Source of the DNA: a virus
Taxonomy: Duplodnaviria; Heunggongvirae; Uroviricota; Caudoviricetes
DNA: 4,202 nt
Virus record (IMG/VR): IMGVR_UViG_2734482572_000006
Strand: one strand, 5' to 3'
Part shown: positions 1,697 to 4,202 of the stretch, in pieces
How positions within the stretch are numbered: position 1 is the first letter of the stretch
Layout of the letters: each line of letters begins with the position of its first letter
Translations under genes and position numbers: made by a program
The notes under the pieces: model-generated
The model's database searches: none
Seen by the model: the letters and a program-made list of their open reading frames with translations, nothing else
Told to the model about the DNA's origin: nothing

Positions 1697-2092
1697 TCAC
1701 ATTTCATAGATAATGACATAAGTCAGATCGGCTGAACTCCACAGGCCCGCATCATCGTCGCGCCGGTAGTCATAGCCGCTGGCCACCATACTGGTGATCA
1801 AATCTGACAGTGCCGGGATATCGCTCATCACAGGATAAATCCGGGACTCCATCCACGAATCCAGCTCTGAATCCGGCACCTGAGCAGGCAGGAAAACTTC
1901 AATATGCAGCTCCGCCTGCCAGGTATCGCTGTCCAGCTCTTCGCCCGTGTATTCAGCGCCGGTGAGATAAACGGCAATTGCCGGAAAATCTTCCTCATCA
2001 AAAACAGCGGGGCGACCATCAAAAAGCGTCGCCCCGGTGTCATGCTTCTCCAGTGCATCCAGTACGGCTGCACGGAGTTCAGTATGTTTCAT
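1697..2092 (-). CDS. U: Tail terminator protein U, 131 aa
   Basis: The [59 protein letters not shown]... matches lambda gpU as I recall it. Its ATG (2092..2090) overlaps the Z stop TGA (2091..2089) as ATGA. Its stop is 7 nt before the V start. Confidence 0.95.
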
Positions 2093-2550
2093 CGCTTTAT
2101 TACCATCCTCAGTTGATGCTGCAGCGCATAGCCCAGCTCTTTCGGAAGACGTTCACGCCGTATCCGTTCAATATTCTGTTTAAACGCCGTGGTCAGCGGC
2201 ACCGCCATCGGGATTTTCACCACATCAATGGGGTAACGGTTTTTCCCGGCCACACGCTGCATAACATGCCACCGGCCGTTTTTCAGTTGCTGAATAAACG
2301 CGCCGGGAATACGACGGTTACCCACCACAAGCACGCTGCCGCCACCTTTCAGGGATGAACGCTGCCCCTTTTTATGACGCCTGCGGCGGGACAGGACAAC
2401 CCGCGCATTACCCAGCTTGATTACGGGCAAATCCCCCCGGTTAACTTTGATTCTGGCCTGCGGATTTTTGACCGTGGCCCTTTTCAGCCTGGCCCTTTCC
2501 TTTACCAGTTTCCGGCGTACCTTTGTCTCACGGGCAACCTGTGACGCAGA
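2089..2550 (-). CDS. Z: Tail completion protein Z, visible C-terminal 153 codons plus stop; the N-terminal ~39 codons and start lie inside N run 2551..2814
   Basis: The visible translation [153 protein letters not shown] matches lambda gpZ from about residue 40 to the end. Stop TGA is at 2091..2089. Confidence 0.9.
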   Translation of the reverse strand, partial: SASQVARETKVRRKLVKERARLKRATVKNPQARIKVNRGDLPVIKLGNARVVLSRRRRHKKGQRSSLKGGGSVLVVGNRRIPGAFIQQLKNGRWHVMQRVAGKNRYPIDVVKIPMAVPLTTAFKQNIERIRRERLPKELGYALQHQLRMVIKR

Positions 2551-2814
2551 NNNNNNNNNNNNNNNNNNNNNNNNNNNNNNNNNNNNNNNNNNNNNNNNNN
2601 NNNNNNNNNNNNNNNNNNNNNNNNNNNNNNNNNNNNNNNNNNNNNNNNNNNNNNNNNNNNNNNNNNNNNNNNNNNNNNNNNNNNNNNNNNNNNNNNNNNN
2701 NNNNNNNNNNNNNNNNNNNNNNNNNNNNNNNNNNNNNNNNNNNNNNNNNNNNNNNNNNNNNNNNNNNNNNNNNNNNNNNNNNNNNNNNNNNNNNNNNNNN
2801 NNNNNNNNNNNNNN
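2551..2814. other. N run (264 nt), sequence unknown, spanning the FII 3' end, FII-Z spacer and Z 5' end
   Basis: Literal n characters. A lambda-like arrangement would need about 275 nt here (147 + 11 + 117). Confidence 0.9.
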
Positions 2815-3021
2815 AGTCCGGACAAACAGGGACGGGCTGGAGCCTTCAACGCGCACGCCCTGTCCGGCATAGCTGATATTTTCAGGGTCATCAAAAACAC
2901 CACGTATCACCGCACCTGACTGCTCACCGGATGTCATGGTGGCTGACGTTCCCATGTACCCGCGTATCGTTTCATCGGCGCGGGCAATGGCAGCATCGAA
3001 CAGGTTATCGAAATCAGCCAC
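2815..3021 (-). CDS. FII: Head-tail joining (head completion) protein FII, visible N-terminal 69 codons; the C-terminal ~48 codons and stop lie inside N run 2551..2814
   Basis: A GTG start at 3021..3019, translated as M by the ORF track, is preceded by GGGAGG and lies 11 nt after the FI stop. The translation MADFDNLFDAAIARADETIRGYMGTSATMTSGEQSGAVIRGVFDDPENISYAGQGVRVEGSSPSLFVRT matches the lambda gpFII N-terminus as I recall it. The 310-aa track ORF 2089..3021 is an artefactual FII+Z fusion through the Ns. Confidence 0.9.
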
Positions 3022-3032
3022 AGCGCCTCCCG

Positions 3033-3431
3033 TTATTGCATTCTGGCCAGGCCGCGCTCTGTCATTTCGGCTGCCACACCGGCAGAGACACGAAACGCCG
3101 TTCCCGGCAGCACAAATGCCACAGGTTTATCCCGCGTGGCGTGAAGTGCATCAGTATGCAGCGTCACCAGTGCCACGACCGTGACCAGTTCAGCCGTATC
3201 CTGAATCACGGTATCCGGCTGCGCTGATACCACCTCATTTTCATGCCCGGTCAGCACATTTTCCCGGCTGAGAGGGGTGTCCTGACCGGCAGTTTCATCC
3301 GTGTCATCAAGCTCTTCTTCCAGCTCTGCCACACGAAGCGCCAGTTCTTCTTTCGTTCCCGTCAAACTGACATCGCGGTTCAATTGCTCACCCAGCTCCT
3401 GAAGACGGGCAATCAGTTCATCTTTCGTCAT
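3033..3431 (-). CDS. FI: Head assembly / DNA packaging accessory protein FI, 132 aa
   Basis: ATG at 3431..3429 is preceded by GGAGGAG. The translation MTKDELIARLQELGEQLNRDVSLTGTKEELALRVAELEEELDDTDETAGQDTPLSRENVLTGHENE...AEMTERGLARMQ matches lambda gpFI with a few substitutions relative to my recollection. Stop TAA is at 3035..3033. The track ORF (3033..3470) starts at an upstream M inside the E-FI spacer and hairpin. Confidence 0.93.
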   Translation of the reverse strand: MTKDELIARLQELGEQLNRDVSLTGTKEELALRVAELEEELDDTDETAGQDTPLSRENVLTGHENEVVSAQPDTVIQDTAELVTVVALVTLHTDALHATRDKPVAFVLPGTAFRVSAGVAAEMTERGLARMQ

Positions 3432-3442
3432 GAACTCCTCCA

Positions 3443-3470
3443 CAGAGAGAAAATGGCCCCGAAGGGCCAT
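3443..3470 (-). other. Predicted RNA stem-loop (7-bp GC-rich stem, UUCG tetraloop) followed by a U/C-rich tract, in the E-FI intergenic spacer
   Basis: The minus-strand (mRNA-sense) sequence just after the E stop is AUGGCCC-UUCG-GGGCCAU followed by UUUCUCUCUG. Plus 3453..3459 (atggccc) is the exact reverse complement of plus 3464..3470 (gggccat). Function is inferred only. Confidence 0.5.
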
Positions 3471-3472
3471 GA

Positions 3473-4202
3473 TTACGCCAGTTGAACGGACACGAACTCA
3501 TCAGGATCAGCCAGCAGCATCAGCGGTGCTGACTGAATCATGGTGAACTCACGCGCCGGATCGCCGGTGGTCACCCAGTTTTTCGGGTAACGGGCAGAAG
3601 CGTTAATGCCTTCGCGCTGTGCGTCCGCATCCTGAATGCAGCCATAGGTGCGCAGACCGCGAGCCTGAGTGTTCCCCAGCACCATCGTGTTGTCCGGCAG
3701 GAAGTTCTTTTTGACGCCGTTTTCCACGTACTGTCCGGAATACACGACGATGGCCACATCGCCATACATTCCCTNNNNNNNNNNNNNNNNNNNNNNNNNN
3801 NNNNNNNNNNNNNNNNNNNNNNNNNNNNNNNNNNNNNNNNNNNNNNNNNNNNNNNNNNNNNNNNNNNNNNNNNNNNNNNNNNNNNNNNNNNNNNNNNNNN
3901 NNNNNNNNNNNNNNNNNNNNNNNNNNNNNNNNNNNNNNNNNNNNNNNNNNNNNNNNNNNNNNNNNNNNNNNNNNNNNNNNNNNNNNNNNNNNNNNNNNNN
4001 NGTTGTTCGCCGCACTGCGGCCCATATCCACCTCAACCGGATCGAAGGCTTCACCGGTCATGGTGTATTTGCCCTTGAGCACGGCAGAAACTGCCTGCAT
4101 CTCTTCGACCTGAGCAATGGCCAGCTCTTCGTCACGCATGTTCTGCATGATGATGCGACGGCGGCGGTAAGCCGGGTCCGCCAGATTCTGCGGATCTTCA
4201 TC
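3473..4202 (-). CDS. E: Major capsid protein E (HK97-fold), partial: N-terminal ~100 codons lie right of the window, with an internal N run at 3775..4001
   Basis: My translation of 4202..4002 gives DEDPQNLADPAYRRRRIIMQNMRDEELAIAQVEEMQAVSAVLKGKYTMTGEAFDPVEVDMGRSAANN. Translation of 3772..3476 gives GMYGDVAIVVYSGQYVENGVKKNFLPDNTMVLGNTQARGLRTYGCIQDADAQREGINASARYPKNWVTTGDPAREFTMIQSAPLMLLADPDEFVSVQLA. Both match lambda gpE as I recall it. Stop TAA is at 3475..3473, 41 nt before the FI start. Confidence 0.93.
3775..4001. other. N run (227 nt), sequence unknown, inside E
   Basis: Literal n characters. The E reading frame differs by one position between the two flanks (227 is not a multiple of 3), and a lambda-length E would need about 238 nt. 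Confidence 0.9.

Follow-up and report, generated by a model that had tools for sequence, protein, structure and literature searches.

A conserved terminator-type stem-loop between the major capsid gene E and FI of lambda-like phages, with a putative role in the late mRNA

Stem-loops downstream of highly expressed phage genes

Stem-loops placed between cistrons are known to stabilise mRNA, as with the REP element in malE-malF and the hairpin of the puf operon. C(UUCG)G hairpins reportedly occur in the intercistronic regions of T4, where Tuerk and colleagues are said to have described them in 1988. In T7, the T-phi terminator after capsid gene 10 is a leaky terminator that sets gene dosage. Inefficient terminators balance expression in T7 and in LUZ7 (PMC9163698). 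The late operon of lambda is transcribed by a Q-antiterminated polymerase, and Q is needed for its 27-gene late transcript (PMC10695390). The ratio of the late proteins is usually credited to translation initiation, and the title of Sampson et al. 1988 names translation initiation as what controls relative late-gene expression.

The closest counterparts of the element treated here are found in public phage records. Between gene 8 (major capsid) and gene 9 (FI), the N15 record (NC_001901.1) carries a stem_loop at 7053..7073 that it describes as 'putative rho-indep. transcription terminator'; such stem_loops are annotated in its D-E gap too. In HK97 (NC_002167.1) a 'terminator putative' is placed at 5192..5213, right after gp5. 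The P22 record (NC_002371.2) has a stem_loop at 6102..6119, past coat gene 5, which is said to be 'similar in location to stem-loops in phage HK97 and phage lambda'; this hairpin reads AGGGGC(UGCG)GCCCCU and is followed by UUCUUUAUGGAG. The E-FI hairpin is unannotated in the records of lambda, HK630 and 434. That the initial annotation of the present locus knew of no documented function is a fair statement, yet the stem-loops of the N15, HK97 and P22 entries had already put the feature on public record. Added here are the size and pattern of its conservation, the strand deduced from wobble pairs, the breadth of its positional recurrence and an observation on IS4 insertions. As a clear instance of a layout already known, with a putative function, the hairpin does not amount to a discovery.

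The E-FI junction

The window, i.e., the whole stretch of DNA analysed, comprises 4,202 nucleotides of a Caudoviricetes virus (IMG/VR record IMGVR_UViG_2734482572_000006). According to the list of open reading frames, its minus strand carries a lambda-type late operon with the 3' part of E, followed by FI, FII, Z, U, V, and G. Over positions 3330-3580 it matches Escherichia phage Chlobot at 100% identity and lambda at about 93%. The junction between E and FI is composed as follows.

3473..3772, minus strand: 3' end of E (major capsid), from the ORF list; Pfam PF03864 Phage_cap_E, E = 3.6e-23; stop codon TAA at 3475-3473
3453..3470, minus strand: hairpin AUGGCCC(UUCG)GGGCCAU; 5' arm 3470-3464, loop 3463-3460, 3' arm 3459-3453; corresponds to lambda J02459 7163-7180
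3443..3452, minus strand: U/C-rich tract UUUCUCUCUG (in DNA letters TTTCTCTCTG), directly 3' of the stem; the T at 3442 comes next
3435..3441, minus strand: FI Shine-Dalgarno sequence GGAGGAG, followed by TTC and the FI ATG
3033..3431, minus strand: coding sequence of FI (DNA packaging chaperone); ATG at 3431-3429; Pfam PF14000 Packaging_FI, E = 2.6e-56

Upstream of 3772 the E coding sequence enters a masked run of N. Three such runs (501-771, 2551-2814 and 3775-4001; together 762 bases) hide portions of G, of the minus-strand ORF 2089..3021 and of E. The ORF 2089..3021, which lies downstream of FI, is apparently a merger of FII and Z. Two database proteins of 441 aa (P0004 and P0006) bear the capsid-E and FI Pfam domains together.

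The hairpin lies within an intergenic gap of 41 nt and begins 2 nt past the E stop codon, with TC between them. The initial annotation had described a perfect 7-bp stem with five G:C pairs and a C(UUCG)G loop directly after the E stop, then a U/C-rich tract, then the FI Shine-Dalgarno sequence, and the sequence reads exactly so. The Pfam matches of the upstream gene and of FI bear out the placement between E and FI, which had likewise been proposed.

Structure and chance expectation

The folding check proposed with the initial annotation gives a stable structure: RNAfold places the hairpin in both the minimum free energy (MFE) and the centroid structures, in contexts of 61 nt as well as 151 nt. 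Partition-function calculations with 30-150 nt of flanking sequence give the closing A-U pair a probability of 0.71-0.87 and the remaining six pairs one of 0.92-1.0, and the isolated hairpin has a dG of -12.3 kcal/mol. The loop belongs to the UNCG type with C-G closing, and the motif C(UUCG)G at 3464-3459 is the sole CUUCGG in the window. A search of Rfam over 3300-3600, with E values up to 10, returned sub-threshold chance matches only; the best overlapping match, PhotoRC-I, reaches 14.2 bits compared with a gathering score of 45 (E = 0.28), and no curated family is assigned. An RNase III site was also considered and ruled out, a 7-bp stem being far too short for one.

From the window alone, the hairpin is statistically unremarkable. 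The fold of the 61-nt segment has a z of -0.62 relative to dinucleotide shuffles. By chance, 0.77 perfect stems of 7 bp or more that contain five or more GC pairs are expected per window, and at least one appears in 48% of Markov shuffles. A terminator scan found five sites in the window vs 2.4 +/- 1.3 expected, with the hairpin ranked first. Across 9 kb of a lambda-like late operon, simple hairpins of -12 kcal/mol or lower (G.U pairs allowed) are found in about eight places, mostly within genes; among these strong hairpins the intergenic ones are confined to the D-E and E-FI gaps. What goes beyond chance is the place of the hairpin in a 41-nt gap, the unique CUUCGG and, above all, the conservation in relatives.

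The U/C-rich tract reads UUUCUCUCUG in the window and UGUUUCUCUG in lambda, and passes the scan criterion of at least five T in eight. It may represent a terminator-type U-tract and, being rich in pyrimidines, double as a leader of the ribosome binding site of FI. In the window, the FI Shine-Dalgarno sequence pairs with the tract to form a weak second hairpin in the MFE structure, with a probability of being unpaired of at most 0.26. The Shine-Dalgarno sequence of lambda is mostly open, its 3' part being unpaired with a probability of about 0.92. The second hairpin was thus rejected as a conserved feature, since it is absent in lambda and impossible in N15-type sequences.

Two further features of the FI start region can be mentioned. 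A 7-bp perfect inverted repeat, AGUUCAU(GACGAAAG)AUGAACU, surrounds the FI start codon (3415-3436, minus strand) and may, to judge from the predicted pairing, lower FI initiation in the phage of the window; lambda has UCC for UUC, which leaves the repeat imperfect, and it is not conserved there. The first three bases of the E-FI hairpin, AUG, are in frame with FI and would add a 13-codon N-terminal extension, MALRGHFLSVEEF- (3033-3470, minus strand). This AUG is probably not used as the FI start, because it has no Shine-Dalgarno sequence and is buried in the stem.

Conservation among lambda-like relatives

Loci for comparison were drawn from IMG/VR, GTDB genomes and GenBank phages. Lambda itself (J02459) contains the identical 18 nt at 7163-7180, between E, which ends at 7160, and FI, which starts at 7202. 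Among the 177 loci in which E ends with DEFVSVxLA, the motif GGCCC-N(3-6)-GGGCC lies just 3' of E in 173; of the other four, one is interrupted by IS4 and three are distant loci that carry a different hairpin. Conservation in relatives had been named as a check on the initial reading, and both this core and covariation at the outer pairs (see below) support it.

The 51 distinct intergenic variants among these loci share all ten core positions, whereas among the third positions of the final 30 E codons 27 vary across them and three are invariant. The surroundings of the core are plastic. The spacer between stop codon and hairpin, the tail, the Shine-Dalgarno sequence and the N-terminus of FI are all variable among relatives, and the Shine-Dalgarno sequence and tract differ freely even among near-identical phages. 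A U-rich tract follows the hairpin in nearly all relatives; the 10 nt past the stem contain on average 52% T and 73% pyrimidine over the 51 variants, while the sequence itself varies. In a Buttiauxella prophage the element reads ACGGCCC(UCCG)GGGCCGU and is followed by U8.

The loop is less constant than the core. UNCG loops are present in 21 of 31 distinct hairpin variants (UUCG in 14, UGCG in four, and UCCG in three), and UGUC, UUAG, AUUC, UGUU, UUUC, UUCA, UUCU, AGCA, and UGUG account for the other ten. By this comparison of sequences, therefore, the tetraloop is favoured and not obligatory.

The homologous N15 element shares with the window its location in the E-FI gap, the GGCCC....GGGCC core, the 7-bp stem, the T-rich tract and the following FI Shine-Dalgarno sequence. 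It differs in having a G-C closing pair (A-U in the window) and an AUUC loop (UUCG in the window), in lying about 10 nt farther from the stop codon, and in a poorer U-tract, CUUUCUGG, for which a terminator discriminant, of indicative value only, gives d = -12.5.

Covariation and the functional strand

The pairing analysis is based on the 31 distinct hairpin variants, with one variant carrying a 3-nt loop excluded from the alignment, and 94.9% of the alignment cells are paired. The closing pair is A-U in ten variants, G.U in 11, and G-C in five; the second pair is U-A in 20, C-G in four, and U.G in one. The covariation score amounts to 0.138 vs a shuffle mean of 0.092, a value reached by none of 500 shuffles, and partners slid along the alignment score at most 0.081. 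Only the two outer pairs covary; the five inner ones are constant throughout and hence uninformative for or against pairing, and the support that covariation lends to the predicted stem is modest.

Wobble pairs are informative about the strand. When the variants are read on the late-transcript strand, 12 contain G.U or U.G pairs and none contains A.C or C.A. Since the wobbles fall on this strand only, the pattern points to an RNA of the late-transcript strand rather than to a DNA palindrome. The run of T 3' of the hairpin is likewise found on the late-gene strand only. The opposite strand was considered as the hairpin strand and rejected; it gives a weaker fold (-14.8 kcal/mol) with a CGAA loop and lacks the T-run, and the wobble pattern also speaks against it.

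Recurrence after unrelated capsid genes

The position of the hairpin is preserved far beyond its sequence. In 14 D/E-type head modules examined by hand, with capsid proteins down to about 26% identity, a strong GC hairpin unrelated in sequence, usually with a U-run, occupies the post-capsid gap in 12. The gap measures 34-82 nt in these 12 modules, and their hosts include Xylella, Burkholderia, Pseudomonas, Marinobacter, Proteus, Xanthomonas, Aeromonas, Vibrio, and E. coli. At the gene junction that follows, these modules have at most 27 nt or an overlap, and a comparable hairpin is absent from it. The exceptions, 4A7 and Serratia BZS1, have 1-3 nt past the capsid gene, i.e., no real gap. Individual post-capsid hairpins are the following.

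Xylella Sano: CCCGG(UUCG)CCGGG
Burkholderia AH2: GGCCCGC(UUCG)GCGGGUC
Proteus Saba: hairpin with a UACG loop
Aeromonas PhAER-5: 12-bp stem, then UUUUGUUUU
Vibrio HY01: AAAAUGGGUCC..GGACCCAUUUUU

UNCG tetraloops return in the non-homologous hairpins of Xylella Sano, Burkholderia AH2 and Proteus Saba (UUCG, UUCG and UACG, respectively).

The hairpins of P22 and HK97 resemble the window hairpin in lying directly 3' of the major capsid gene of a lambdoid late operon, and in combining a GC-rich stem of 6-7 bp, a tetraloop and a U-rich tract that runs into the next Shine-Dalgarno sequence. Their capsid genes (HK97-type gp5 and P22 gp5) are unrelated to lambda E, and so are the hairpin sequences. In the HK97 record, putative terminators also flank the gene for the major tail subunit (HK97 locus 2193-2220 and 2944-2963). 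Lambda differs in having none around V; in the window, the V-G gap is 15 nt and U overlaps V.

In many modules, that of lambda included, a terminator-like hairpin also separates the decoration gene from the capsid gene. In the D-E gap of lambda (6080-6134) a canonical terminator-like hairpin, AAAGGCCGC(CUGU)GCGGCUUU, is followed by UUUUACGGGAUUUUUUU, and the D-E gap hairpin is annotated as rho-independent in the records of 434, mEp237 and N15. Gene E is therefore bracketed by terminator-like hairpins, though the downstream late genes must be transcribed through both.

Likeness to intrinsic terminators and stabilising hairpins

Several features of intrinsic terminators are found at the E-FI junction, i.e., a GC-rich stem-loop on the transcribed strand, co-oriented with the genes and located just past a stop codon. 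The UNCG loop, the 3' U-rich tract and the position after the capsid gene add to the likeness. The differences are that the U-tract of the window is interrupted (UUUCUCUCU), that the operon is Q-antiterminated and that essential genes lie downstream.

Terminator quality is uneven within the family. A d'Aubenton-Carafa-type discriminant, which is only indicative, ranges from -12.5 to +52; it is borderline for the window (+7.6), lambda (-3.5) and N15 (-12.5), and clearly positive for the relatives in Buttiauxella (+52), Trabulsiella (+25), P22 (+13) and HK97 (+27). Because the polymerase is modified by Q and essential genes are located downstream, termination at the hairpin should be partial or weak at most.

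Like mRNA-stabilising hairpins, the element is a stable stem-loop that follows the cistron with the higher expression, and its loop is C(UUCG)G. A sequence relationship with REP elements does not exist, and the stabilising role of the window hairpin is putative.

Possible functions of the hairpin

Sequence evidence leads us to favour, with a probability of roughly 0.55, an intrinsic-terminator-type stem-loop in the late mRNA that would act mainly as a barrier to decay, and less so as a weak terminator, to the benefit of the capsid message. Most of the Q-modified, terminator-resistant polymerases would read past the hairpin. In the finished RNA it would fold and halt 3'-to-5' exonucleases that enter after endonucleolytic cuts downstream, such that the D-E segment would outlast FI and the genes beyond. 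A minor part could be played by weak termination, and either way the capsid message would exceed the downstream message. The terminator-like hairpin in the D-E gap could have the same effect for D. The element would then be one case of a widespread phage layout, a hairpin 3' of the structural gene needed in the largest amount. What a decay barrier is expected to look like in sequence, a stable, structurally conserved hairpin 3' of the more abundantly required cistron, is what the E-FI gap appears to contain, and an effect on RNA 3' ends and RNA abundance is predicted.

The initial annotation had suggested a partial terminator or attenuator, or a 3' stabiliser of E-containing message. The class of element holds up through conservation, strand, the U-rich tract and the same-position hairpins of distant phages, and the borderline terminator score and the read-through expected with Q limit termination to a weak effect. 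Against a decay barrier one may set the unexceptional fold energy relative to shuffles and the presence of similar chance hairpins inside coding sequence. The literature search returned no paper on the lambda E-FI hairpin and no 3'-end maps of the lambda late operon, nor did the papers reached report RNA 3' ends, a step in coverage or differing half-lives at the hairpin, and searching by the hairpin sequence gave nothing relevant. As the title of Sampson et al. 1988 points to translation initiation, the share of the hairpin in the E:FI ratio is likely limited, and an mRNA-level contribution may be modest.

Other explanations have to be considered. The hairpin could serve to stop polymerase devoid of Q, e.g., in spurious or read-in transcription in a lysogen, and so keep the late structural genes silent, with no role once Q is present. 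The terminator anatomy on the sense strand only is compatible with such a function, as is the requirement of the late transcript for Q (PMC10695390). The canonical D-E terminator, too, lies upstream of essential genes and needs to be bypassed in lytic growth. A guard against unmodified polymerase leaves unexplained, however, why hairpins are placed after capsid, decoration and major tail genes, and the lambda and N15 versions score as weak terminators by the indicative discriminant. The layout is also present in Casjensviridae phages, e.g., Xylella Sano and Proteus Saba. Such phages are virulent, with no known prophage state that would need protection. This explanation is considered unlikely. 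Similarly doubtful is a translational element for FI, in which the hairpin would shield the ribosome binding site of FI both from the coding region of E and from the ribosomes that terminate 2 nt before it, while the tract would either enhance initiation as an S1-type pyrimidine leader or damp it by pairing with the Shine-Dalgarno sequence. In the GGCCC family the T-rich tract always leads straight to the GGAG of FI, the tract of the window pairs with GGAGGAG (at most 0.26 unpaired), the window has its own 7-bp repeat around the FI start codon, and control of late-gene ratios is assigned to translation initiation in the title of Sampson et al. 1988. Yet occlusion of the Shine-Dalgarno sequence is not conserved in lambda (3' part about 92% unpaired) and is impossible in N15-type sequences, near-identical phages already differ freely in both this sequence and the tract, and the hairpins of distant relatives lie about 25-40 nt away from the Shine-Dalgarno sequence of the next gene.

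The strict constancy of the core raises the question of whether GGCCC/GGGCC is read as a sequence, be it as a DNA site for a protein, as a recombination joint of head modules, or as an RNA operator by which a protein of the phage or the host would couple expression of the capsid gene to that of FI and the genes downstream. All ten core positions are fixed next to varying synonymous sites, the core is kept in 173 of 177 loci, swaps from G-C to C-G are absent within it, the stop-hairpin flanks and the FI N-termini differ widely around it, and IS4 targets the site. But distant relatives retain structure and position and not sequence, wobbles fall on the RNA-sense strand only, and there is no Rfam family match. 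A 5-bp all-GC stem selected for stability is moreover expected to evolve slowly, because any single change weakens it. Recognition of the sequence is regarded as very improbable. As for an inverted repeat that arose by chance and has no function, the window-level statistics would allow it, but conservation far above that of neighbouring synonymous sites, compensatory changes in the outer pairs, and same-position hairpins in unrelated phages effectively refute it.

If the hairpin does raise the capsid message, it would add an RNA-level layer to the question of how a single 26-kb late transcript yields proteins in ratios from hundreds to a few. Its recurrence after the capsid genes of unrelated phages would provide a landmark for annotation and phage engineering, and insertions into the E-FI gap, as in display or reporter phages, should then retain or substitute the hairpin.

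IS4 insertions in the hairpin

Natural interruptions of the element exist. An IS4 copy resides within the E-FI hairpin of phage PhiR70_1 (PV340577) and of five complete E. coli genomes, with a target duplication of 12 bp, GGCCCTTCGGGG, which covers the inner stem and the loop. The junctions are located as follows.

PV340577 locus 61-74 and 1500-1517: IS4 junctions, corresponding to window 3453-3470
E. coli C2 locus 1700-1720 and 3140-3165: IS4 junctions, corresponding to window 3453-3470

The PhiR70_1 record gives a complete phage genome and names E. coli C as the host, from which it follows that an intact hairpin immediately past E is probably dispensable. The test is weak, because the duplication rebuilds a 5-bp core before FI and the end of IS4 has a hairpin of its own. 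The latter is terminator-like, CCGGAAACG(CTCA)CGTTTCCGG followed by T7, and lies about 70 nt past the E stop codon.

An unrelated IS4 copy downstream of ymcF is also inserted inside a terminator hairpin (GGCTCC CTCGT GGAGCC TTTTTT), with a 13-bp duplication. IS4 seems to pick GC-rich terminator-type palindromes.

Lambda E in bacterial assemblies

Lambda E at 95-100% identity is also encountered on short contigs, many of them with a low coverage given in the contig name, in assemblies labelled as Neobacillus, Kitasatospora, Shewanella, Chromatium, Paenibacillus, Bradyrhizobium, Corynebacterium, and others. These contigs almost certainly represent contamination with lambda DNA.
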